From assembly GCA_964545245.1 (NCBI GenBank), contig CAZJFC010000002.1:1119-65118 (forward strand): 64,000 nt of DNA, read 5' to 3'. The stretch's first letter is position 1. Each line of letters begins with the position of its first letter. The notes beneath the pieces were generated by a model. The model was given only the letters and a program-made list of their open reading frames with translations. It did not search any database and was not told where the DNA came from. Positions 1-64,000 of the stretch are shown here, in pieces. Source of the DNA: an uncultured Rickettsiales bacterium. GTDB taxonomy: Bacteria > Pseudomonadota > Alphaproteobacteria > Rickettsiales > 21-14-0-20-44-7. The position numbers and the translations under genes were made by a program.

Positions 1-507
1 GGGCTTGAAACGATCGTGCGGCTGAAAGGCGGCGACCCGTTTATTTTCGGGCGCGGCGGCGAGGAGATCGAGGCGCTTTCACAGGAAGGGATCACGTTTG
101 AGGTCATCCCCGGAGTGACGGCAGCGGCGGCTTGCGGCGCGGCTTTGGGCATCCCGCTTACGCACCGCGATTATGTTTCGGGCGTGCATTTCTTCACCGG
201 CCACGGCTGCCACGATATCGAGCCGGGGGTGGACTGGAAGATACTTGCGAGTGAGGACAAAACGCTGGCGATTTATATGGGGATAACCAATATCAGCCTC
301 ATCTGCCAAAGGCTGGTGGAACATGGGATGCAGCCCGATATGCCGGCGGTGGTGATCGAGAACGGCACGCAGGAGAACCAGCGCGAGTTCTTCGCGCCGC
401 TTTCCGCCCTGCCGGAGGTTATTGAGAAGAACGCGGTGAAATCGCCGGCGCTGATACTCATCGGCAAGGTAGTCGGTTTTGCGCTGGGTTTGAGGGGAAG
501 TCATTAG
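1..507 (+). CDS. cobA: Uroporphyrinogen-III C-methyltransferase (SUMT / CysG C-terminal type) fragment; the 5' end lies outside the window
   Basis: Frame 1 is open from base 1, so the GTG at 16 is only the ORF-caller start. The translation carries the tetrapyrrole-methylase signature RLKGGDPFIFGRGGEE and PGVTAAAACGAALGIPLTHRD. Confidence 0.8.
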   Translation, partial: GLETIVRLKGGDPFIFGRGGEEIEALSQEGITFEVIPGVTAAAACGAALGIPLTHRDYVSGVHFFTGHGCHDIEPGVDWKILASEDKTLAIYMGITNISLICQRLVEHGMQPDMPAVVIENGTQENQREFFAPLSALPEVIEKNAVKSPALILIGKVVGFALGLRGSH

Positions 508-630
508 TCGTTAGTCATTGGTCATTAGGGCCACCTCACCCCAACCCTCTCCTCATAGGAGAGGGAGCTACAATTTACCCCTGAGGGGATGGGGGAGGTG
601 GTACTCGACTCACGACTCAAGCTACTACTT
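498..630. repeat. Composite palindromic element: heptad arm + G/C-rich nested hairpins + inverted heptad arm
   Basis: Left arm is AAGTCAT TAGTCGT TAGTCAT TGGTCAT TAG; the cobA stop codon is its second TAG-containing unit. Core is CCACCTCACCCCAACCCTCTCC-TCAT-AGGAGAGGG ... CCCCTGAGGGGATGGGGGAGGTGG. Right arm is TACTCGA CTCACGA CTCAAGC TACTACT. The same core words recur at 1946, 3197 and 8793. Confidence 0.8.
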
Positions 631-1945: not shown

Positions 1946-2141
1946 GAGTCATTAGAGAGTCGTAAGTCGTATGTCGTAAGGGAAAATTCAGAATTTCTAA
2001 TGTTCCGAAGTTCCATCTTTAGCACCTCACCCCAACCCTCTCCTGATAGGAGAGGGAGCTACGGTTCACCCCTCCTATCAGGAGGGAAATATCTCTTTCA
2101 CCCCTCCTATCAGGAGGGGATGGGGGAGGTGGCCTAATGAC
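1946..2141. repeat. Composite palindromic element (heptad arm + three G/C-rich hairpins)
   Basis: Arm is GAGTCAT TAGAGAG TCGTAAG TCGTATG TCGTAAG. It is followed by CACCTCACCCCAACCCTCTCCTGATAGGAGAGGG, CCCCTCCTATCAGGAGGG and CCCCTCCTATCAGGAGGGGATGGGGGAGGTGG. The outer ends GTCATTAG...CTAATGAC are inverted. Confidence 0.8.
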
Positions 2142-3141
2142 TAAAAAGTTTCTTTGTGACAATGCCCTTCTTGTGCAGTGCCTTGATTTCCTTGTAGCCC
2201 GCGCCGGCTTTCAGCTTGCGGGTTTGTGGGGGTTTTCCGGCGGTGATTTTTTCGGAGAAGGAGTTGATGTAAATGGTGAAGCCGGTCGCGTTCAGCCCGC
2301 CGGTGGAATAGCGGCCACCGCGGCCAAGTTCGTCGCGGATGTTTTTGGCGAAAAGCGAGAAGCTGAATGTGTTGTGGTATTCAAAACCGCGGTTTTCGGC
2401 AAAATCGGCGGTGATGTTGACAGGGAGTTTGGTGGCGCGTATCTCGTCATAAACCGCGCGGAGATATTCGAGCTGTTTTTTGCATTTTGCGGGGAGTTTA
2501 ACCGCGAAGCTTTTTTCGGCGTTGCCGGAGGCTTTTGCTAGTTCGGCTAAGGTTTTTGGCAGTTTTGCAAGGTCACGCTTGGCGAGCGCGTTGCTGATCT
2601 CCGGGGTTATACCGATGCCCAGCGAACCGACGAGGCCGGGGGCGTTGAGGTCGATCGTGATGTCCTTGAGGCCGACTTCGAGGAGGGATTCGATTGCGAT
2701 GATGGCAATTTCAGCATCGGCGGAAGGGTTTGGTTTCTTGTCGAAAAGTTCCAGCCCGGCCTGGCGTAACTGGCGCTGGCCGCGGGTGTTGAGGGCGTAG
2801 GAACGCACGATGTCGCCAGCGTAGCAAAGGCGGAGCGGCAGTTCGGCTTCCTCCATGCGCGATTTGGCGAGGCGTGCAACCTGCGTGGTGATGTCGGCGC
2901 GGATGCCGACGATTTTTTGCGAGGCAGGGTCGGTGAGTTTTAACGTGCGCGGCTCAAGCGCGTTGCCAGCGCCGCTGAAAAGGGAGGTTGCGAATTCCAG
3001 CAGCGGGGTGGAAACAAGCTCATAGCCCCAGTTGCGGAAATTGCCGATGAATTTCTGCGTGCAGAAATATTCCTTCGCGGCGTCTGCGGGAAGCAGGTCG
3101 CGAAAGCCGGAGGGCAAAAGGAAATTACTCTTATCTGTCAT
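2134..3141 (-). CDS. hisZ: ATP phosphoribosyltransferase regulatory subunit HisZ (HisRS paralogue without anticodon-binding domain)
   Basis: The N-terminus LLPSGFRDLLPADA...WGYELVSTPLLEF is HisRS class II-like. The protein is short, and a full hisS is present at 47935. I prefer the start at the ATG at 3141 (MTDKSNF) over the ORF-track start at 3168. Confidence 0.75.
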   Translation of the reverse strand: MTDKSNFLLPSGFRDLLPADAAKEYFCTQKFIGNFRNWGYELVSTPLLEFATSLFSGAGNALEPRTLKLTDPASQKIVGIRADITTQVARLAKSRMEEAELPLRLCYAGDIVRSYALNTRGQRQLRQAGLELFDKKPNPSADAEIAIIAIESLLEVGLKDITIDLNAPGLVGSLGIGITPEISNALAKRDLAKLPKTLAELAKASGNAEKSFAVKLPAKCKKQLEYLRAVYDEIRATKLPVNITADFAENRGFEYHNTFSFSLFAKNIRDELGRGGRYSTGGLNATGFTIYINSFSEKITAGKPPQTRKLKAGAGYKEIKALHKKGIVTKKLFSH

Positions 3142-3196: not shown

Positions 3197-3332
3197 TAGT
3201 CGGTGGTCTGTGGTCGGTAGTCTGTAGCTTTTCCACCTCCCCCATCCCCTCCTGATAGGAGGGGAGAATTATAACTCCCTCTCCTATCAGGAGAGGGTTG
3301 GGGTGAGTGGGGGTAAGAAACTGACACTCATG
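3197..3332. repeat. Composite palindromic element
   Basis: Arm is TAGTCGG TGGTCTG TGGTCGG TAGTCTG TAG. It is followed by CCACCTCCCCCATCCCCTCCTGATAGGAGGGG and CCCTCTCCTATCAGGAGAGGGTTGGGGTGAG, then a GACACTCA-type tail. Confidence 0.8.
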
Positions 3333-4584: not shown

Positions 4585-5187
4585 ATGCAAAAACCATTTG
4601 AAAAAATAACCCCGGATTCTGACCCCTTCGCAATCTTTACGGAATGGTACGGCGCGGCGCAGAAAACCGTGAAAGAGCCGACCGCCTTTAACCTTGCCAC
4701 GGTGGGGCGTGACGGCAGGCCGTCATCGCGCATTGTGCTGCTAAAAAATTTCGATCCGCGGGGGTTTGTATTTTATACCAATTCGCAAAGCAAGAAAGGT
4801 GCTGCTATCGCCAAAAACCAGAATGTGGCGCTGAACTTCTTCTGGGCTGACCTGCAAAAGCAGATACGCATTGAAGGCGTGACTGAAAAAGTGGAAGGCG
4901 CGGAGGCTGACGGATATTATAACAGCCGCGAGCTGGGTAAAAGAATCGGCGCATGGGCGAGTTTGCAGTCGGAGATCCTGCCGAAGCGGGAGGATCTGTT
5001 CAGGCGGATCCAGGACTTTATGGAAAAATTCGGCGATAACCCGCCTCGCCCGCCGCACTGGCATGGCTACCGCGTGAAGCCGGATTATTTCGAGTTCTGG
5101 CAGGAGGGCGAGTTCCGCCTTCATGAACGTGATGTTTTCGAGCGCAGGAAGGATGGTTCGTGGGCGCATTATAAGTTGTATCCATAA
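4585..5187 (+). CDS. pdxH: Pyridoxamine 5'-phosphate oxidase
   Basis: RIVLLKNFDPRGFVFYTNSQSKKG, IRIEG, and the C-terminal HWHGYRVKPDYFEFWQEGEFRLHERDVF are classical PdxH motifs. Confidence 0.9.
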   Translation: MQKPFEKITPDSDPFAIFTEWYGAAQKTVKEPTAFNLATVGRDGRPSSRIVLLKNFDPRGFVFYTNSQSKKGAAIAKNQNVALNFFWADLQKQIRIEGVTEKVEGAEADGYYNSRELGKRIGAWASLQSEILPKREDLFRRIQDFMEKFGDNPPRPPHWHGYRVKPDYFEFWQEGEFRLHERDVFERRKDGSWAHYKLYP

Positions 5188-5191
5188 AAGT

Positions 5192-5325
5192 TAGTCGCTG
5201 GTCTCTGGTCACTGGTCGCTAGCGAGTAGTCAGGTTGGAGCGAGCGAGGCAGGAGGCCGAGCCAGTCCTGAGCGTGCCGGAGGCACAGCCCATCGGAGGC
5301 GCAGGAGCGCCGCACGGGGGCAAAA
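5192..5325. repeat. Heptad arm plus multi-hairpin repeat (family copy A)
   Basis: Arm is TAGTCGC TGGTCTC TGGTCAC TGGTCGC TAGCGAG TAGTCAG. It is followed by GCGAGGCAGGAGGCCGAGCCAG and GAGCGTGCCGGAGGCACAGCCCATCGGAGGCGCAGGAGCGCCGCACGGGGGCAAAA. An inverted copy lies at 10815-10900 and a truncated copy at 63962-64000. Confidence 0.8.
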
Positions 5326-5371
5326 TAATAATTCAGTTGCCCGCAAGCGGGGGTTGCGATAAAACACCAGA

Positions 5372-6892
5372 ATGGTGGCGCATATTACAACCGTTGCGTT
5401 TGAAGGGCTTTCGGTCACGCAGATTGATGTTCAGGTACAGATTTCACCGGGTTTGCCGGCTTTCATAATTGTCGGGCTTGCCGATAAGGCCGTCGCGGAA
5501 AGCAAGGAACGCGTGCGTGCCGCGCTTTCGGCGATTGGCCTTGCGCTTCCCGCTAAACGTGTGGTGGTGAACCTTGCGCCGGCGGATATCATCAAAATCG
5601 GCAGCCATTACGATTTGCCGATCGCGATCGGCCTGCTGGTCGCCATGAAAATTATCCCGCAGGACGCGGCGGAGGAATTCTTCTGCATGGGCGAGTTGGG
5701 GCTTGATGGTAAAATCCTCCCTGTAAGCGGTGTTCTGCCCGCGAGCATTGAGGCGAAGGCAACCGGGAAAGGCATCATCTGCCCGGAAGCCTGCGGCCCG
5801 GAGGCGGCATGGGCGGGGGAGCTGGACATCCTTGCGGCGCCGGGGCTGGTTTCGCTCATCAACCATTTCAAGGGCAATGAGGTGATGAAACGCCCACAGG
5901 TCAAGGTGAGGGAGTCGGCAAAAAAACATGCCTGTTTGCGTGACATCAAGGGGCAGGAAAACGCGAAACGCGCGCTCGAAATCGCGGCGGCGGGCGGGCA
6001 TAATATCCTGATGCTTGGCCCGCCGGGCGCGGGGAAGTCAATGCTTTCATCGCGGCTTATCGGGCTGCTGCCGCCGCTTTCCGCCGAGGAAATACTGGAG
6101 GTGAGCATAATCAATTCCATCGCCGGGAAAATTTCCGATACCGGCCTCACGGCGGAGCGCCCATACCGTGACCCGCACCATTCAACCTCGATGGCGGCGC
6201 TGGTTGGTGGCGGCAAACGGGCTTATCCGGGCGAGATTTCCCTTGCCCATAAGGGAGTGCTGTTCCTCGACGAATTGCCGGAATTTAACCGTGATGTGCT
6301 GGAATCCCTCCGCCAGCCGATGGAGGCCGGGAACGTAACCATCGCCCGTGCGAACACTCATGTGACCTATCCAGCAAGGTTCCAGCTTGTTGCAGCGATG
6401 AACCCGTGCCGCTGCGGCTACCTTGACGATGCGGGCAGGGCTTGCGGCAAAGCGCCGAGATGCGGTAGTGATTACCAGTCGAAAATTTCCGGCCCGTTAT
6501 ATGACAGGATCGACTTGTTCATTGACGTACCCGCGCTCACCCCGCAGGATATGATGCGCGAAGGCAATGAAGGCGAGCCGACAAGCCTTATCGCAAAACG
6601 CGTGGCGAAAGCCCGTGAGGCGCAGAAACAAAGGTATCATAACGACAATATGAAATATTTCACCAATGCGGAAGTTGACGGGGAATATCTGGAAAAAGTC
6701 GCCACGCCGGACGGGGATGGCAAAAAACTCCTGATGCAGGCAGTGGAGAATTTCGGCATCTCCATGCGCGGATATAACCGTATCCTGCGGGTTGCACGCA
6801 CCATCGCTGACCTTGAAGGAGCCGGGCAGATTGCAAAAAAACATGTCGCCGAGGCGATTTCATACCGGCAAAAAGCCTATGGGCAGGGCTAG
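5372..6892 (+). CDS. comM: YifB/ComM family Mg-chelatase-like ATPase
   Basis: 506 aa. It has an N-terminal Lon-protease-like domain, Walker A GPPGAGKS, LFLDELPEF, and a Cys cluster NPCRCGY...CGKAPRC. Confidence 0.9.
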   Translation: MVAHITTVAFEGLSVTQIDVQVQISPGLPAFIIVGLADKAVAESKERVRAALSAIGLALPAKRVVVNLAPADIIKIGSHYDLPIAIGLLVAMKIIPQDAAEEFFCMGELGLDGKILPVSGVLPASIEAKATGKGIICPEACGPEAAWAGELDILAAPGLVSLINHFKGNEVMKRPQVKVRESAKKHACLRDIKGQENAKRALEIAAAGGHNILMLGPPGAGKSMLSSRLIGLLPPLSAEEILEVSIINSIAGKISDTGLTAERPYRDPHHSTSMAALVGGGKRAYPGEISLAHKGVLFLDELPEFNRDVLESLRQPMEAGNVTIARANTHVTYPARFQLVAAMNPCRCGYLDDAGRACGKAPRCGSDYQSKISGPLYDRIDLFIDVPALTPQDMMREGNEGEPTSLIAKRVAKAREAQKQRYHNDNMKYFTNAEVDGEYLEKVATPDGDGKKLLMQAVENFGISMRGYNRILRVARTIADLEGAGQIAKKHVAEAISYRQKAYGQG

Positions 6893-8792: not shown

Positions 8793-8995
8793 CGTAAGTC
8801 ATAAGTCGTATGTCGTAAGTGACCACCCCCCTTCCGTCCCCCCTGATAGGGGGGAGAATCGAGGTTCCCTCTCCTATGAGGAGAGGGTTGGGGTGAGGTG
8901 CCGGGAGAGTGGGAGTGACAGTGTCAGTGGGAGAAAAACTGACACTCACACTGCCACTACAGCGCCTCCCTTCCGTCCCCCCTGATAGGGGGAAG
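8793..8995. repeat. Composite palindromic element (largest copy)
   Basis: Arm is CGTAAGT CATAAGT CGTATGT CGTAAGT. It is followed by CCCCCCTGATAGGGGGG, CCCTCTCCTATGAGGAGAGGGTTGGGGTGAGGTG, the inverted GAGTGACAGTGTCAGTGGG/CTGACACTCACACTGCCACT pair, and a second CCCCCCTGATAGGGGG hairpin. Confidence 0.8.
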
Positions 8996-10769: not shown

Positions 10770-10814
10770 GCGGCTTTTTTAACCTAAACCCCTTAAGTTT
10801 CAAGTGGGGGAATT

Positions 10815-10925
10815 GTTTTTTTGCCCCCGTGCGGCGCTACTGCGCCTCCGATGGGCTGTGCCTCCGGCACGCTCAAGGCTGGGCCGTTCTCCTGAACGGC
10901 TACTAGCCACAATCCACTAGTATGG
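10815..10925. repeat. Multi-hairpin repeat (family copy B, inverted relative to copy A) plus a short CTAGT-type arm
   Basis: The reverse complement reads GCCGTTCAGGAGAACGGCCCAGCCTTGAGCGTGCCGGAGGCACAGCCCATCGGAGGCGCAGTAGCGCCGCACGGGGGCAAAAAA. Confidence 0.8.
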
Positions 10926-10929
10926 GGTA

Positions 10930-11934
10930 TTACTTGATGAGATGGCCGGACTTTGTTGCCTTCACGCTCAGGTAGCGCTGGTTGTGTTCGTGCTTTATTA
11001 CCATTGGTACTAAACCAGTTACCTTGATGCCGTTCTTTTCCAGCGCTTTTGCTTTTTTCGGGTTGTTGGTGATGAGTTTGCCCTTTTTAATGCCGAGTTT
11101 TTTCAGCATTACCGCTGCCGGTTCAAACGCGCGTTCTTCATCGTCAAAGCCGAGGAATTCATTTGCTTCCACCGTGTCCAACCCTTCGGATTGGAGTTTG
11201 TAGGCGCGGAGCTTGTTTATAAGTCCGATGCCGCGTCCTTCCTGCATCAGGTAAAGGATGACGCCGCCGCCGTTTTTGTCCATCAATTTGATGGTTTCGC
11301 GTAGCTGGTCTCCGCAATCGCAGGAAAGGCTGCCCAGCAGATCACCCGTGTAGCATGATGAATGGATGCGGATCAGCGGTTCTTTGCCGATATCGCCGAT
11401 GATGATGGCAAGGTGCTCGGTGCTGCCGGCTTTGGGGCGGAAGGCTTTGATGCCGGCTTTTTTCGCATCGCGCAGGTTAAGTGGCGCAGAGGTGATCTCC
11501 TCAAGGCTGCCGTTCAGTTTTTCCTGATAGGTGAGGAGGGCGTTCGCCGTAGCTTTCAGCGCGGATTTAGCCGGGTTGTCGAACAATATCGCGCAGGGGA
11601 GGATTTGCGCCACGCGGGAAATTTCAACCGCGGCTTCGGCGGCTTTGGATTTGTCTTCGCGGTAGGATATTTTTTTGCCGGGGTTGCGGCCTTCGATGAA
11701 CAGATGGATAATCTCCGGCTTGTTGGCTTTAAGGCATATCGCAAGGTTGTGCTTCGGCAATTTGCCGGTCAGCGCATGGGCGCGGGAAGGGGTTATCACC
11801 AGCCGCGGGTTTTTGAGTTTTTTTATTAATTCAAGGTCGGTGAATTCCGGGTGCAGGAAACCGGTGCCGCCAATATTGATGGCGCGGCCGCAACGTAATT
11901 CGTGTATTGCCCTGTCAGTTTGAATGATGCTCAC
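10930..11934 (-). CDS. ribA: GTP cyclohydrolase II with an N-terminal extension
   Basis: IHSSCYTGDLLGSLSCDCGDQL (Zn Cys triad), ILYLMQEGRGIGLINKLRAYKLQ and DTVEANEFLGF. Confidence 0.85.
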   Translation of the reverse strand: MSIIQTDRAIHELRCGRAINIGGTGFLHPEFTDLELIKKLKNPRLVITPSRAHALTGKLPKHNLAICLKANKPEIIHLFIEGRNPGKKISYREDKSKAAEAAVEISRVAQILPCAILFDNPAKSALKATANALLTYQEKLNGSLEEITSAPLNLRDAKKAGIKAFRPKAGSTEHLAIIIGDIGKEPLIRIHSSCYTGDLLGSLSCDCGDQLRETIKLMDKNGGGVILYLMQEGRGIGLINKLRAYKLQSEGLDTVEANEFLGFDDEERAFEPAAVMLKKLGIKKGKLITNNPKKAKALEKNGIKVTGLVPMVIKHEHNQRYLSVKATKSGHLIK

Positions 11935-27170: not shown

Positions 27171-27223
27171 CCAACTAACTGAATACATCCTTATGGGTAT
27201 GTTGTCTGATTGCCATTTTGTAT

Positions 27224-27310
27224 TGGTGCCCTCGGTCGGACTCGAACCGACACATCATCGCTGATACTGCATTTTGAGTGCAGCGCGTCTACCAATTCCA
27301 CCACAAGGGC
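27224..27310 (-). tRNA. tRNA-Leu (anticodon CAA), type II with long variable arm, CCA encoded
   Basis: The reverse complement is GCCCTTGTGGTGGAATTGGTAGACGCGCTGCACTCAAAATGCAGTATCAGCGATGATGTGTCGGTTCGAGTCCGACCGAGGGCACCA. It folds with a 7-bp acceptor stem, anticodon stem CTGCA/TGCAG, loop CTCAAAA, variable stem ATCA/TGAT, and T arm GTCGG-TTCGAGT-CCGAC. Confidence 0.92.
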
Positions 27311-27448
27311 ACACCTTTTGCTCGTGCCGACTATGTGCCGACCAAAGCAATTTCTTCTTTTACCAGATACTATTTGCTCGCCTCAAGCATTTGTTATCTG
27401 TTAAATATTTTCTTCCCTACCGTTTCCCTCATGGCAAACTTGCAAAGT

Positions 27449-27486
27449 TTTGAGTCTAGCGCGTCTACCAATTCCACCACAGGGGC
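27449..27486 (-). pseudogene. 5'-half fragment of a second, diverged tRNA-Leu(CAA)
   Basis: The reverse complement GCCCCTGTGGTGGAATTGGTAGACGCGCTAGACTCAAAA matches tRNA positions 1-38 with 3 substitutions. Similarity ends right after the anticodon loop, and there is no 3' half. Confidence 0.8.
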
Positions 27487-27593
27487 ATTTGTTAACGTCT
27501 TACCAAAAAACCGGAGAAAGCAAATTTCCCCACGAAAATTGATAATTAAGCAGAGCGGAATATAACCGCTGCGACCTATTCTTCCAGCAAAAT

Positions 27594-28631
27594 TTATATT
27601 TTATCAATTATAGAAAAATCAGGCTCTTTATAATTCTCTTTCAACCATTCTGTGGATGGCGGGGTGATTTCGTCATTGGTAATTTGACTAAAGGTTTTAA
27701 GGATATTGCTACCTATGAAAAACTCATTGCCATATCGGTCTACAATGCCAAAATCCGCTATTGCAGCACAGTTTTTCCTGCAGCTTATGGCTTCCAGCAA
27801 CACGCCTGAACTCATGGCGACTATAAGGCTGGACGTGTTTATCAGCTCTGTTGTGGTTTTATCGGTGAGTGAAATATTGGTTATTTTTTTGTATTTCTTC
27901 TTTAGCTTGCGGAAAAGTTTTTCATAATGGAATTTGCTGTTATGCGTAGATTTCTCTCTGGGGAAACAACGTGGTTTAATGTAAACTGTGCGGTTGGGAT
28001 ATTTTCCCGCATATTCAAATAATGAGCTCATTATCAGGGCTTTATCCCTTTTCAGGCGCGGAATTTCCGTCTGCTCAAAAAAGGTGACTATGTTGCCCCC
28101 AACTTTTGAATCAGCAATTTGGAGGGGCTTAAAGCGGGCAAATCCGCCATATCCAAATGCGAATTTTTTCACTTTTGGAAATTTAAGCTCGGCCTCATAA
28201 TTTTCATATAGAGCAAGCTCTTTTTCCGTATTGAAAAGAATTGTATCTGACAGGCTGCGGCAGTAAAAACCGCGATATTTGCCATAGGAATTGATACCGG
28301 GGAAAAGTGTAACTATCTGGGGGCGTGAAGGGTCATTACTGAATATCTCCCTGATTCTGGAAGAATATTTAATAAGGTGTTCCCCGCCTGCACCAAGGAA
28401 TATGTGGGAAAACTCCTGCAGATAATGCCGGTTAAAGACCTGTTTTTCCCTTATTACTGAGTAGCCGGAAGAAACCCCTGATTCATGAATCTGCCTTGCG
28501 GAAATTTTTTCCTCTTTAATCAGGGTTATTGCTACCTTAACATTTTTTGAATTGTAATGCCCAATGATGCCCGCAAGGGTAAAAAGATATGAATCGGAAC
28601 GAATGAGGAACAGTATTTTGTCTTTACTCAT
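27594..28631 (-). CDS. Hypothetical protein, candidate glycosyl/sialyl-transferase of the glycan island
   Basis: 346 aa from the ATG at 28631 (MSKDKILFLIRSD). The longer 480-aa ORF is rejected because its first 135 codons are antisense to the ACP gene. AT-rich, and I recognise no signature. The function is guessed from context only. Confidence 0.3.
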   Translation of the reverse strand: MSKDKILFLIRSDSYLFTLAGIIGHYNSKNVKVAITLIKEEKISARQIHESGVSSGYSVIREKQVFNRHYLQEFSHIFLGAGGEHLIKYSSRIREIFSNDPSRPQIVTLFPGINSYGKYRGFYCRSLSDTILFNTEKELALYENYEAELKFPKVKKFAFGYGGFARFKPLQIADSKVGGNIVTFFEQTEIPRLKRDKALIMSSLFEYAGKYPNRTVYIKPRCFPREKSTHNSKFHYEKLFRKLKKKYKKITNISLTDKTTTELINTSSLIVAMSSGVLLEAISCRKNCAAIADFGIVDRYGNEFFIGSNILKTFSQITNDEITPPSTEWLKENYKEPDFSIIDKI

Positions 28632-46060: not shown

Positions 46061-47098
46061 TTAAAACCCATAATGTTCTAGCCAACGCACGTCACTTTCG
46101 AAAAACTGGCGTAAGTCAGGGATGTTATATTTCAACATTGCCATGCGTTCGATGCCTGCGCCGAATGCAAAACCTGAATATTCTTCCGGGTCGATTCCCA
46201 CGTTTTTAAGCACGTTAGGGTGAACCATTCCCGCGCCCATGATTTCCAGCCACTTGCTATTCTCCCACTCAATATCAACCTCCGCGGAAGGTTCGGTGAA
46301 CGGGAAGTAAGAAGGGCGCAGGCGCATCTTGCGCTCGCCGAAGAACTGGGTGATGAATTCGTTGAGAGTCCATTTCAAATGGCCGAAATTCACGTTCTTA
46401 TCGATATAAAGCGCCTCAACCTGATGGAACATCGGGGTGTGCGTCATGTCGGAATCGGAACGGTAGGTGCGCCCCATCGAGAAAATACGGAATGGAGGTT
46501 TACCGTTTTCCATAGTGCGGATCTGCACCGGCGAAGTATGCGTACGCAGGACGCGGAGTACGCCTGCACCCCCCTCTTTCCCCCCTATTAGGGGGGATGA
46601 AAGGGGGGTGGCCGGCGGCAGATAAAACGTATCATGCATCTGGCGGGCAGGGTGGCTTTCCGGGATGTTCAGCGCAGTGAAGTTGTGGTAATCATCCTCG
46701 ATATTCGGGCCATCCTTGAATTCAAATCCAAGGCTGCCCAGAATTTCCGCGATCTCACTCTGAACCTGTGATATCGGGTGGATAGAGCCTTTGCGCTCCG
46801 GGCGTACGGGAAGGGTGACGTCCACCTTCTCATTCACCAGTTTTGCATTGATTTCGGCAATTTCCAGTTCGGCTTTCTTTGACTCGATAACAGATTCAAG
46901 CGCCTGCTTCACCTCATTCACCTCTGCGCCAAAGGCTTTTTTTTCTTCCGGCGGGAGCAAGCCTATTTTGGACATTTCGGCGGTGAGCAAACCTTTCTTG
47001 CCAAGATATTTCACGCGCAGATCATCAAGCACGCGCAGATTACCAGCTTTGCTGATCTCGTTATTCGCTTCGGTTTTTATATTTGCAAGTGCGCTCAT
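46061..47098 (-). CDS. pheS: Phenylalanine--tRNA ligase alpha subunit (carries an in-frame repeat insertion)
   Basis: HPARQMHDTFY...LRTHTSPVQIRTM, FRIFSMGRTYRSD and GAGMVHPNVL. Confidence 0.92.
   Translation of the reverse strand: MSALANIKTEANNEISKAGNLRVLDDLRVKYLGKKGLLTAEMSKIGLLPPEEKKAFGAEVNEVKQALESVIESKKAELEIAEINAKLVNEKVDVTLPVRPERKGSIHPISQVQSEIAEILGSLGFEFKDGPNIEDDYHNFTALNIPESHPARQMHDTFYLPPATPLSSPLIGGKEGGAGVLRVLRTHTSPVQIRTMENGKPPFRIFSMGRTYRSDSDMTHTPMFHQVEALYIDKNVNFGHLKWTLNEFITQFFGERKMRLRPSYFPFTEPSAEVDIEWENSKWLEIMGAGMVHPNVLKNVGIDPEEYSGFAFGAGIERMAMLKYNIPDLRQFFESDVRWLEHYGF
46560..46620. repeat. G/C-rich palindromic element inside the pheS coding sequence
   Basis: CACCCCCCTCTTTCCCCCCTATTAGGGGGGATGAAAGGGGGGTG. 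It is translated as ATPLSSPLIGGKEGGAG between the conserved DTFY and LRTHTSP blocks. Confidence 0.75.
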
Positions 47099-47100
47099 TT

Positions 47101-47156
47101 CTAGTCCCTGGTCTCTAGTCGCTAGCTAGCAGCCAGTGACTAGCGACTATTGACTC
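47101..47156. repeat. Stand-alone heptad-arm dyad (no G/C core) between rplT and pheS
   Basis: CTAGTCC CTGGTCT CTAGTCG CTAGCTA | GCAGCCA GTGACTA GCGACTA TTGACTC. The two halves are imperfect inverted repeats around GCTAGCTAGC. Confidence 0.75.
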
Positions 47157-47161
47157 ATAAA

Positions 47162-47530
47162 CTATGCAGCTTTTTTGGCAAGCGCAGCTTTTGCCTGTTC
47201 GCAGATCGCCTTGAATGCGGCAGGCTCTGTGATTGCAATGTCGCTAAGGACTTTGCGGTCAAGCGTGATGCCGGCTTTGTTCAGGCCATCAATGAACTGT
47301 GAGTAAACCAGCCCGTTCTCACGCACTGCGGCGTTGATGCGCTGGATCCAAAGCTTGCGGAAATCACGTTTGCGGCGTTTGCGGTCGCGGTATGAATATT
47401 GCATACCTTTTTCGACCTTCTCAATCGCTACGCGGTAGCAATTCTTGGCGCGGCCATAATAGCCTTTTGCTTTTTTAAGAACTTTTTTGTGGCGGGCTTT
47501 AGCGCGAACCGCTCTTGTTGCATGTGTCAT
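47162..47530 (-). CDS. rplT: 50S ribosomal protein L20
   Basis: [35 protein letters not shown]...[21 protein letters not shown]. Confidence 0.95.
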
Positions 47531-47753: not shown

Positions 47754-47764
47754 ATTTTTTCCAG

Positions 47765-47806
47765 TAGTTAGAGTTTAGAATCCGGAGTTTAGCCTCTGGA
47801 CCAGCT
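47765..47806. repeat. Heptad arm (AGTTTAG type), left member of an inverted pair
   Basis: TAGTTAG AGTTTAG AATCCGG AGTTTAG CCTCTGG ACCAGCT. Confidence 0.65.
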
Positions 47807-47899
47807 AGCGGCAATACCATGGGCCGGTTCGCGTGAGGGCGGTTTTCTATACGAAGTTGATTGAAATAGCAAGTATATTCTGAAATTAATAATTGCATA

Positions 47900-47927
47900 C
47901 TAAACGCTAAACTCTAAACTCTCGCCA
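47900..47927. repeat. Heptad arm (CTAAACN type), right member of the inverted pair, directly upstream of hisS
   Basis: CTAAACG CTAAACT CTAAACT CTCGCCA, the complement of the AGTTTAG units at 47765. Confidence 0.65.
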
Positions 47928-47934
47928 CTTAATT

Positions 47935-57574: not shown

Positions 57575-58617
57575 GCTTTGCCGATAACCTTGATTTCCGG
57601 CTCAAGTTTTATACCTGACCTTTCAAATACACGTTTCTGAATTTCAAGGATAAGGTTCTCAAGGTCGGAAGCTGTTGCAGTGCCGGTATTGATAATAAAA
57701 TTGCAGTGCTTTTCGGAAACCTGCGCGCCGCCGATTGTAAACCCACGCAATCCTGCTGCATCTATGAGCTGCCAGGCTTTTAACCCTCCCCCATCCCCTC
57801 CCTCAGGGAGGGGAGAAGAAAGGGATTTCACTCCCTCAGGGAGGGGGAAGTTTAAGCCTCCCACCGCTTGCGGGGGGAGGTTGGAGGGGGGGGCGGGGTT
57901 TTTGAACGTGCTGCCCCCGGTGCGGGTGCGAATTGGCTGTGACTCCTCCCGCGCGGTTTTGATCTCATTCATTTTTGCATAAATCGCGGTAGGTTCCCCC
58001 GGTTCACCGCGCAGCACCGCTCCGGTCACGATGTAATCATCCCCCGCAAGGAGAGCGGATTTGCGGTAAGAGAATTTGAGGTCATCATTGCTTAGGGTTT
58101 TAACATTGCCGCTAAAGTCAACCACCGTAGCTTCCACCAGAACATCCTTGGTTTCCTTGCCATACGCGCCGCCGTTCATCTTCACTGCGCCGCCGATCGT
58201 GCCGGGAATCCCCACCAGGAATTCCAGCCCGGCAATTCCGTTTTCCGCGGCGAAAGTTGCAACATTTACGTCAAGCGCGGCGGCGCCCACTTTAATAGTT
58301 GCCGGGTTTAAAGACTCCGAAACTCCGAAACTCCGAAACTCCGAAACTTCTACCTTGGCAAATTCCCTCCCCAGCTTGATTACCACGCCCTCAATCCCGC
58401 CATCGCGGATGATGATATTCGAGCCGACGCCAAGCACCGTAACCGGGATATCCTCCGGTTTATTTTTCAAAAAATGCACAAGGTCATCAATATCGGCGGG
58501 CTTGAACAGCACCTCGGCAGGGCCGCCCACGCGGAACCAGTTGGTTTTGCTGAGGTCGGCGTTTTCAGTATAACGCCCACGGATTTGTGGGAGGTTATTA
58601 AGCAACTTTATTACCAA
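57571..58617 (-). CDS. murB: UDP-N-acetylenolpyruvoylglucosamine reductase (carries two in-frame repeat insertions)
   Basis: [44 protein letters not shown] and [11 protein letters not shown]. The start is uncertain: TTG at 58617 or 58605, overlapping the murC end. The ORF-track ATG at 58824 lies deep inside murC. Confidence 0.85.
57783..57897. repeat. G/C-rich multi-hairpin element inside the murB coding sequence
   Basis: CCCCTCCCTCAGGGAGGGG, CTCCCTCAGGGAGGGGG and CCTCCCACCGCTTGCGGGGGGAGG. It is translated as [38 protein letters not shown] between the conserved FKNP and AWQLID blocks. Confidence 0.75.
58314..58349. repeat. Octanucleotide tandem repeat ACTCCGAA x4.5 inside the murB coding sequence
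   Basis: Perfect copies lie at 58314, 58322, 58330 and 58338, with a partial copy at 58346. The minus strand GAGTTTCG x4 encodes [13 protein letters not shown]. Confidence 0.9.
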
Positions 58618-63734: not shown

Positions 63735-64000
63735 ATTCATTGCGAGGCAGGGGCCGAGCCAGCTCTCAACCCAATTTATGTCATTCCGGAATTTTTACCA
63801 GCAGGGAAAAATATCCGGAATCCACAACATTGGGGTTTCGGCAAAAAGTCAGGAGACTTTTTGCGTAATAAAATATCTCCTGACATTTTATTACTGGATC
63901 CCCGTGCAAAAAATTCTTCTGAATTTTTTCACGAGGATGACGATGGGGGGAAAATTGAGAAGCTGTTCAGGAGAACGGCTCAGCCCTGAGCGTGCCGGAG
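63735..64000. repeat. Cluster of repeat modules, truncated by the window end
   Basis: GCGAGGCAGGGGCCGAGCCAG (compare 5244), the hairpin TCATTCCGGAAT...ATATCCGGAATCC, and from 63962 GCTGTTCAGGAGAACGGCTCAGCCCTGAGCGTGCCGGAG, which is the start of the copy A/B family. Confidence 0.65.

Follow-up and report, generated by a model that had tools for sequence, protein, structure and literature searches.

Tandem repeats of seven nucleotides have been described from several groups of bacteria. In 1990, three of them were reported from Calothrix (Mazel et al. 1990, as cited for Calothrix/Nostoc in PMC4692102), and heptamers are, according to a secondary summary of Mrazek 2007, the most over-represented long simple-sequence repeat in many bacteria. 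In Xanthomonas, about 185 degenerate (GGGANTN)n arrays, typically of about 4 units, are biased to sit at or overlap stop codons; they include 70–75 cases of two arrays in convergent inverted pairs, vary in length between relatives and have been interpreted as G-quadruplex formers (Rehm et al. 2015, PMC4692102). Arrays of TAACTGA in marine Beggiatoaceae, cyanobacteria and Bacteroidetes provide stops in three frames, overlap genes only at their ends, occur in ribosomal-protein operons and lie mostly just upstream of start codons, 169 sets being direct and one inverted; relatives possess shorter, repeat-free spacers, and a horizontal origin is suspected (MacGregor 2015, PMC4679880). In Nostoc 7120, eight units of GAC(C/T)AAT are found upstream of recO (bioRxiv 10.1101/2022.06.06.494920). 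Function and origin of heptamer repeats have been open since 1990, and recent papers posit an unnamed binding protein or a transfer mechanism (PMC4679880; bioRxiv 10.1101/2022.06.06.494920). Here we analyse the intergenic heptad arrays in a stretch of 64,000 nucleotides from an uncultured Rickettsiales bacterium (assembly GCA_964545245.1, contig CAZJFC010000002.1, positions 1,119 to 65,118 of the forward strand), termed the window in the following, and compare them with arrays that flank small genes of the 23S_rRNA_IVP or Avd-like four-helix-bundle family (PF05635; IVP genes, for intervening-sequence protein) in other genomes.

The window arrays are heptameric simple-sequence repeats of the short tandemly repeated repetitive (STRR) type. 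This class is already described, and the host lineage is what is new. A first reading of the letters without database searches, referred to as the sequence-only reading, had found no counterpart for the architecture among described families, which does not hold in view of the arrays of Calothrix/Nostoc, Xanthomonas and Beggiatoaceae. Even the unit itself is known from Nostoc recO, as T(A/G)GTCAT of the window (at 498–528, AGTCATT/GGTCATT) is the complement of GAC(C/T)AAT, and AATGACT/AATGACC arrays are present in the Nostoc and Nodularia loci examined. For the variants GTCGTAA and CTAAACT of the window no published description was found. With moderate confidence we favour the view that the STRR-type repeats of this lineage are organised as inverted arms of a hairpin-forming intergenic cassette placed behind stop codons, in the same manner as around IVP genes.

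Tandem Repeats Finder was used as array caller, supplemented by a scan of GTC spacing, a lag-7 shuffle test and autocorrelation. Six strong period-7 arrays were detected in the window (499–528, 1958–1980, 3197–3227, 5194–5217, 8793–8820 and 47900–47922), besides which weaker ones are present. Runs of at least three GTC at exact 7-nt spacing occur seven times, compared with none at spacings of 6, 8 or 9. At least 16 of 21 matches at lag 7 are reached in six regions, as against a mean of 0.06 and a maximum of 2 in 200 dinucleotide-preserving shuffles. In the intergenic DNA (6.1 kb) lag 7 is the sole autocorrelation peak beyond lags 1–3 (z = 5.0), while coding DNA displays 3-nt periodicity only. 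All arrays are located in spacers between open reading frames (ORFs) supported by Pfam and overlap ORFs at stop codons only. The periodicity perceived in the sequence-only reading is genuine and intergenic.

The “strict” unit T(A/G)GTCNN, claimed for no fewer than nine loci, fits only four of them, namely 498–528 (GAAGTCA TTAGTCG TTAGTCA TTGGTCA TTAGG), 3197–3227, 5190–5233 and 47101–47156. Two further arrays, 1955–1981 and 8793–8820, follow (A/T)GTC(G/A)TA and have only the GTC core in common with these, and 47763–47792 and 47900–47929 constitute a separate family, CTAAACN. The segment 602–629 contains only about two recognisable heptad units, and 47765–47806 is weak. Within each window array the variable unit positions are homogenised. 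An extra degenerate heptad array was found on the minus strand at 10903–10925. The inverted pair at 8908–8958, which shares its spacer with a heptad array and is framed by G/C-rich units, has a period of 6 nt (AGTGNN), so that the arms are not strictly heptadic. The features of the window are as follows (REP, repetitive extragenic palindromic; REPIN, REP doublet forming a hairpin).

498–528, plus strand: heptad near arm of about 4.3 units AGTCATT/AGTCGTT/GGTCATT, which holds the TAG stop (505–507) of the TP_methylase (cobA-like) ORF
531–602, unstranded: REPIN-like doublet of G/C-rich units, with unit A forward at 531–568, a 9-nt spacer and unit B reverse at 578–602
531–568: make-up of unit A, CCACCTCACCCCAACC plus the hairpin CTCTCCT-CAT-AGGAGAG
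603–629, minus strand: complementary arm in degenerate form, with remnants besides about 2 clear units (GAGTCGT, GAGTCGA), which holds the stop (625–627) of the convergent COX1-like ORF
1955–1981, plus strand: heptad array GTCGTAA/GTCGTAT of about 3.3 units, far arm of the composite after minus-strand hisZ
2023–2132, unstranded: G/C-rich units, with unit A forward at 2023–2059, an extra hairpin at 2069–2087 and unit B reverse at 2101–2132
2133–2148, minus strand: single heptad unit AGTCATTAGG (minus strand), which abuts unit B and encodes the final codons of hisZ together with its stop
3197–3227, plus strand: heptad array TAGTCGG TGGTCTG TGGTCGG TAGTCTG with a 14-nt super-period, which abuts unit B
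3233–3310, unstranded: G/C-rich doublet, with unit B forward at 3233–3267 and unit A reverse at 3275–3310
5190–5233, plus strand: heptad array of about 6 units, TAGTCGC TGGTCTC TGGTCAC TGGTCGC TAGCGAG TAGTCAG, beginning 3 nt past the pdxH stop
5240–5335, plus strand: copy of the third repeat family (G/C-rich, structured, about 95 nt long), downstream of the heptads
8793–8820, plus strand: heptad array CGTAAGT CATAAGT CGTATGT CGTAAGT, beginning 28 nt past the histidine-kinase stop and abutting a G/C-rich unit
8822–8901, unstranded: G/C-rich doublet of a variant unit forward and unit A reverse at 8866–8901
8908–8958, unstranded: inverted arms of hexamer period, AGTGGG AGTGAC AGTGTC AGTGGG and their complement
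8965–8995, plus strand: solo variant CCTCCCTTCCGTCCCCCCTGATAGGGGG of the G/C-rich unit
10903–10925, minus strand: degenerate heptads ACTAGTG GATTGTG GCTAGTA, after the GTP-cyclohydrolase-II stop and preceding the third-family copy at 10810–10900 (minus strand)
47101–47156, unstranded: heptad dyad without cargo between rplT (stop 47162–47164) and pheS (start 47098), both on the minus strand
47763–47792, minus strand: CTAAACN arm directly upstream of the rpmI start codon (47753)
47900–47929, plus strand: CTAAACN arm of 3.3 units, ending 6 nt before the hisS start (47935) and inverted relative to 47763–47792

The arrays have a common polarity relative to the genes. The strand that carries the TAG/TGG-type units is the sense strand of the upstream gene, and the array starts at or shortly after the stop of that gene, a position that the sequence-only reading had pointed out for several arms. 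The stops of the TP_methylase ORF, the COX1-like ORF and hisZ (2134–2136) are themselves parts of heptads, and the C-terminus of HisZ, ...FSH*, is read from AGT CAT TAG and is therefore repeat-encoded. The arrays behind pdxH and the histidine kinase gene are slightly displaced from the stop, and those at the GTP cyclohydrolase II gene and rplT are likewise placed after it. Where a second arm exists across the spacer, it is the complement of the near arm. The sequence-only reading described the arms on the two sides of a core as mutually inverted, which is true for 498/602, 1955/2133 (the far side being a single unit), 47101–47156 and 47763/47900 and fails for 3197, 8793 and 5190. Nothing is enclosed by the arms at 47101–47156, G/C-rich palindromic units are enclosed at 498–630, 1955–2148, 3197–3310 and 8793–8901, and a third structured repeat accompanies the arms at 5190–5335 and 10810–10925. 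As proposed, the two arms of 47101–47156 form a true dyad on their own, the predicted RNA hairpin having −27 kcal/mol (z about −4 to −4.6). In the predicted fold of 492–636 (−60.5 kcal/mol, z = −4.1) the arms lengthen the stem of the G/C-rich doublet, and the predicted RNA folds of the elements as a whole reach z = −4 to −9 relative to shuffles. In the divergent rpmI/hisS spacer (47754–47934) each start is preceded by CTAAACN heptads, at a distance of 10 nt and 6 nt, respectively, and the arrangement is symmetric around 107 nt of unique sequence.

The gene content of the window includes an Hda-type (Hda-lid) protein, HisZ, PdxH, ComM, CcmC, ExoD and rpmI-rplT-pheS-pheT. The best named relatives of its ComM belong to metagenome-assembled genomes (MAGs) of Rickettsiales, Rhodospirillaceae and Alphaproteobacteria, with 62–63% identity. 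Syntenic relatives were found via ComM homologs, a HisZ-based scan for orthologous loci having given none. In one of them (L001, ComM 78% identical) the pdxH-comM gap measures 38 bp versus 184 bp in the window, and the histidine kinase gene and ccmC overlap versus a spacer of 255 bp in the window. Since these spacers are short or absent in L001, the repeat-bearing spacers are lineage-specific. Few or no arrays are present in L001, L123, L124/125 and L206. Another relative (L121, GCA_043757405.1, ComM 72% identical) contains ten period-7 arrays in 21 kb, which belong to several unrelated families, form mostly inverted pairs and include a perfect 25-bp stem of AGTCATT/AGTCTCA units. Between comM and the kinase gene of L121 resides an IVP gene of 117 codons (E = 1e-33; 11504–11933), which is bordered by inverted heptad arms identical in 27/27 nt; the near arm includes the comM stop and the far arm the IVP stop. 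No gene is found between comM and the kinase gene in the window, L001 or L206, and the window is also devoid of the arms of this IVP gene. In L206, whose ComM is 82% identical to that of L121, IVP gene and arms are both absent, the two sequences diverging two codons before the comM stop.

The arrangement in L121 recurs around IVP genes in general. From metagenomes, 80 IVP loci (L126–L205) were gathered with coding-sequence patterns only, 70 of which have enough flanking sequence. A strong inverted repeat between upstream and downstream flanks is present in 50/70 and a direct repeat in 5/70, whereas the rate of inverted flanks amounts to 13% for mismatched flanks and to 1.1% of 735 size-matched ORFs, the top scorers among these ORFs again being IVP and DUF559 genes. 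In a stricter, ORF-anchored pass strong arms were found in 40/69 loci; 37/40 of these are tandem arrays, with period 7 in 15 and period 8 in 22, and the IVP stop is inside or abuts the far arm in 23/40. In 32/47 armed loci the near arm contains the stop of a co-directional host ORF or is preceded by it at a distance of at most 30 nt. In 37/42 loci the arm period equals that of the nearest protein neighbour, and the observed difference was reached in 0/2000 permutations. The arms of one locus (L178), TAGTTGT TAGTCGT TAGACGT, consist of the heptad of the window. Flanks of the direct-repeat, integration-type kind were considered and set aside as rare on the above count; one such arrangement occurs at L178. 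Inverted short-period arrays were also identified on both sides of a distant IVP homolog in a MAG of Flammeovirgaceae; the IVP-family genes with inverted arms include one at L071 (3700–4270). The IVP protein of L121 matches PDB entry 2gsc, which is XCC0516 of Xanthomonas campestris. Rehm et al. 2015 (PMC4692102) list, in a supplementary table, a 4-unit GGGAATC array over the start codon of XCC0516, which thus provides an independent case in the very Xanthomonas strain known for heptamers. A literature search for work tying IVP genes to flanking repeats yielded none, although its coverage was incomplete and does not prove that the link is unpublished.

These data also bear on the simplest explanation, namely that the arrays are plain microsatellites, arising in situ by slippage with a preference for 7 nt, neutral and without identity as elements, their inverted pairs being local palindromes produced by template switching. 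Heptanucleotides are, again according to a summary of Mrazek 2007, the commonest long simple-sequence repeat in many bacteria, and in 884 kb from diverse genomes we counted 41 arrays of period 7 compared with at most 12 of any other period. The many unrelated heptad sequences within the single genome of L121 and the homogenised variable positions inside each array likewise conform to slippage. However, slippage leaves unexplained that the GTC core is in the same phase in 6/8 window arrays, that the arrays are placed after stops with one polarity, that inverted arms are found at 71% of IVP genes versus 1.1% of control ORFs, and that the arm period tracks the IVP protein subfamily. We therefore regard an origin as mere microsatellites as unlikely.

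The G/C-rich cores between the arms had been combined with the heptads into one composite element by the sequence-only reading, which is misleading. The cores are inverted doublets of a 35-nt unit, composed of CCACCTCACCCCAACC and the hairpin CTCTCCT-NAT-AGGAGAG, with heads of the form CCACCTC(A/C)CCC(A/C)A. A 17-mer of the unit occurs in at least 119 species representatives of many phyla, including Nostoc, Bacteroidota, Patescibacteria, Methylobacterium, Serratia and Nitrospirota, and most of these loci have no heptads nearby. Outside the clade, period-7 arrays near the unit are only about 2.7-fold enriched in the 17-mer loci, which is what the common intergenic location alone would yield. 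In the window, units without heptads are found at 8965–8995, at 57790–57850 and inside pheS, and heptads without units at 5190, 47101 and 47763/47900. Eight of its 31 spacers bear heptads, five bear units and four bear both (hypergeometric p ~0.01 by our own arithmetic), and we read this co-occurrence as nesting of one class in the other. The heptads as a constituent part of the G/C-rich unit were rejected on the grounds of the unit's presence in other phyla without heptads and of the low proximity enrichment. Heptads and G/C-rich palindromes are two independent repeat classes, each also found alone and nested here.

The G/C-rich unit has a gene association of its own. Among the 119 loci, which had been picked by the 17-mer alone, a DUF559 (Vsr/PD-(D/E)XK-like) gene lies beside the unit in 7, from different phyla (L027, L030, L050, L052, L054, L060 and L082). 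In L030, L052, L060 and L082, as well as in L121 (14611–15144), the DUF559 gene is situated between inverted units whose ACCTCACCCC heads face the gene, which suggests a role of the unit as terminal repeat in a DUF559 cassette. A literature search for DUF559 with flanking repeats returned nothing, its coverage being incomplete and no proof of novelty. In Nostoc (L022, L024, L025, L037, L041, L042 and L107) the unit is nested in a larger element resembling a miniature inverted-repeat transposable element (MITE), with the terminal inverted repeats GGGAGCATCTCA...TGAGATGCTCCC.

Copies of the unit also enter coding sequences. In pheS (46061–47098, minus strand) a G/C-rich palindromic unit at 46567–46610 keeps the reading frame open, and comparison with E. 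coli-type PheS (3pco_A) reveals 18 inserted residues, PPATPLSSPLIGGKEGGAG, at precisely this place. An essential gene has here received a repeat in frame, as is the case with the Rickettsia palindromic elements (RPEs). At 57790–57900 a cluster of G/C-rich units (CCCTCCCTCAGGGAGGG twice, followed by G-runs) underlies an ORF of 100 codons (57680–57982) without Pfam match, which is probably a spurious call created by the repeats. The third repeat family, about 95 nt in length, has the structure GCCGTTCAGGAGAACGGC...TGAGCGTGCCGGAGGCACAGCCCATCGGAGG-hairpin-GCACGGGGGCAAAA and no Rfam match. It is represented by copies at 5240–5335 (plus strand), 10810–10900 (minus strand) and 63955–64000 (plus strand, cut at the window end) and by L121 5660–5740 (minus strand). 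The two copies that are complete in the window share 95% identity across 66 nt, and the L121 copy exhibits a compensatory change in the hairpin from GGCGC/GCGCC to GGGGC/GCCCC.

The window arms share the properties of the arms of IVP cassettes: they are composed of 7–8-nt units, with a near arm of the TAG/AGG type after a co-directional stop and a complementary far arm. We infer that they are gene-less cassettes of the IVP type, or hairpins of the same origin, with nested G/C-rich units. The cassette we envisage would be positioned directly after a stop codon and co-directional with the upstream gene, its near arm contributing TAG/TGG-type units to the sense strand and its far arm their complement. 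Fold predictions show that the two arms are able to form a long imperfect stem with each other. As TAG recurs every 7 nt and thereby places a stop in each frame within 21 nt, an arm at the 3′ end of a gene truncates it harmlessly, and several window genes indeed end in arm-encoded codons; for the array behind pdxH, each of the TAGs at 5192, 5220 and 5227 falls in a frame of its own, exactly as previously noted. All-frame stops, one of three roles suggested in the sequence-only reading, are real as a property, which is however already part of the TAACTGA literature (PMC4679880); we read them as what makes insertion at gene ends tolerable and not as a dedicated function. The arrays might grow, shrink and homogenise locally by slipped-strand mispairing, and, by analogy with intervening sequences (IVS) of 23S rRNA, the paired arms might provide a double-stranded RNA site whose processing detaches the cassette from the transcript of the host. 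Among the three suggested roles, terminal repeats of a non-autonomous mobile element receive the most support, as arms surround IVP genes in L121 and at 50/70 loci.

Several observations weigh against this interpretation. The link between window and IVP genes would be founded on architecture, polarity, position, one shared heptad family and one relative. L121 and a further entry, L122, are identical and probably the same data, and no database strain exceeds 78% ComM identity to the window. About 30% of the IVP loci are devoid of strong arms, and host phylogeny could be behind the correlation of arm period with IVP protein. The 64-kb window contains neither an IVP gene nor a recognisable remnant, as tblastn with 26 IVP proteins produced noise only; IVP remnants as the content of the space between the window arms were accordingly discarded. 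The arrays at 3197 and 8793 have a non-heptadic far side and the 5190 array is solo, without a partner. The hairpins lack a U-run on the sense strand in the sequences read by eye and are thus not canonical terminators. No target-site duplications, which the sequence-only reading had proposed to look for at the element ends, are visible at the junctions read; no transposase or RAYT gene, another of its search targets, was found among the 66 window ORFs, and the arm sequences vary from locus to locus. In view of these three points, the arms are at most putatively mobile. Rfam at gathering thresholds recognised one tRNA only in the window, and nothing at E ≤ 1 in 5150–5400.

The nested cargos allow the inverse scenario, in which heptad dyads pre-exist in the host and unrelated small elements insert in or beside them, the arms being targets and not ends. 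Three cargos (G/C-rich units, the third family and IVP genes) are indeed found in or beside arms in the window and L121, and cargo-free dyads exist at 47101–47156 and at L121 16284–16337. The junction of GTCATTAGG with CCACCTC was found in two of the doublets and looks like the apex of the cargo-free L121 dyad, and the co-occurrence of heptads and units in four window spacers (p as given above) also agrees with this scenario. Yet L206, the closest relative with empty sites, has neither dyad nor gene at three sites filled in L121. Moreover, the arms closely delimit the IVP ORFs, whose stop falls within the far arm or abuts it in more than half of the armed loci (23/40), and the arm period co-varies with the IVP protein. 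Host-borne landing pads consequently appear to us to have only a small chance of being correct, about as small as that of plain microsatellites.

A further alternative, the periodic protein-binding array that the sequence-only reading also had among its roles, starts from the unit itself. Each 7–8-nt unit might bind one subunit of an oligomeric RNA- or DNA-binding protein, either an Avd-like IVP or a HutP-like protein reading UAG-N4, and thus regulate the translation or the transcript fate of the neighbouring genes. The unit is composed of a conserved 5-nt core and two free positions, and usually 3–6 units are located immediately beside start or stop codons. IVP genes sit between such arrays, and the PDB entries of two IVP homologs comprise five chains each. 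The bAvd protein is a positively charged pentamer and binds nucleic acid. HutP binds (UAG N4)x3. A HutP-type pattern is partly present in the window, where TAG alternates with TGG and no HutP-like Pfam match exists. A heptamer-binding protein has also been speculated on before (PMC4679880; bioRxiv 10.1101/2022.06.06.494920). On the other hand, several unrelated heptad families per genome would need several specificities, and no IVP or HutP gene was found in the window. As an explanation in its own right we judge periodic binding sites to be improbable, the least so favoured of the scenarios considered. Such sites represent a candidate function compatible with the cassette interpretation, with which both this alternative and the landing pads overlap.

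Extending the cassette interpretation beyond this lineage, the heptamer and octamer tandem repeats of bacteria, among them STRRs, the Xanthomonas GGGAATC arrays and the window arrays, might all be arms of a widespread, undescribed cassette with an Avd-like IVP gene, placed behind host stop codons, whose gene-less copies would be non-autonomous or act as sites for IVP in trans, with a DUF559 cassette existing in parallel. We put this forward tentatively, as a generalisation that we would sooner doubt than adopt. If it is true, the pentameric IVP protein would be the long-sought heptamer-binding factor and the G/C-rich hairpin unit the terminal repeat of a DUF559 endonuclease cassette.

Three other features of the window were recorded. 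A tRNA gene at 27227–27310 (minus strand) adjoins a Fic-domain gene; beyond it, no ORF reaches 80 codons for about 1 kb (27171–28563). The G+C content is 40–45% over approximately 24–44 kb, which contains NeuB/epimerase/cytidylyltransferase sugar genes, versus 50–57% in the first 13 kb. At 58314–58348 a perfect 8-nt tandem repeat, ACTCCGAA x4.4, lies inside an ORF of 165 codons without Pfam match, which may be spurious.

Taken for themselves, the heptads are a modest gain of moderate interest, as a repeat class that was known, although unexplained, is now also recorded from an uncultured lineage of Alphaproteobacteria. The leads on IVP arms and on DUF559 units are more interesting. In particular, arrays of 7–8 nt as inverted flanks of PF05635 genes constitute a new lead, with a directly testable candidate partner and cassette model. 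The finding that short repeats supply housekeeping genes with new stops and C-terminal residues, and PheS with 18 residues in frame, matters for gene calling in MAGs.

In comparison with the known systems, the window arrays agree with STRRs in the 7-nt tandem intergenic unit beside start or stop codons and in the presence of several families per genome. They differ in that the host is an alphaproteobacterial MAG, as judged from gene content and ComM relatives, and not a heterocystous cyanobacterium, and in that the arrays are short (3–6 units) and mostly inverted arms with G/C-rich palindromes nested in between. The Xanthomonas (GGGANTN)n arrays are similar with respect to the degenerate heptads, the number of about 4 units and the position at or over stop codons, but their unit is G-rich whereas the window units are not G-tracts. 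Intergenic heptamers with all-frame stops, gene-end overlap and occurrence in ribosomal-protein operons are shared with TAACTGA, which, however, has another sequence, is almost always direct and is mostly found before start codons.

The G/C-rich units of the window, imperfect palindromes of 35 nt that are intergenic, multi-copy and arranged as inverted doublets with long hairpins, are reminiscent of REPs and REPINs. Unlike these, they are without a GTAG or CGTC head and without a RAYT in the window, span many phyla and flank DUF559 genes rather than Y1 transposases. REPINs, in turn, offer no counterpart to the heptad arms, and the heptads are not palindromes. With MITEs the elements have the terminal inverted repeats in common, seen as inverted arms at 498/603, 47101–47156 and 47763/47900, but not a target-site duplication, near-identical copies or a transposase parent. 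Intervening sequences of 23S rRNA with an IVP ORF, of the Leptospira and Coxiella type, were reportedly described by Ralph and McClelland in 1993. The cassettes considered here differ from them in lying between protein-coding genes, in having arms made of tandem 7–8-nt arrays and, in the window, in being ORF-less; they resemble them in the central feature of a small PF05635 ORF between pairing terminal inverted repeats, as realised in the L121 cassette and at 50/70 loci.

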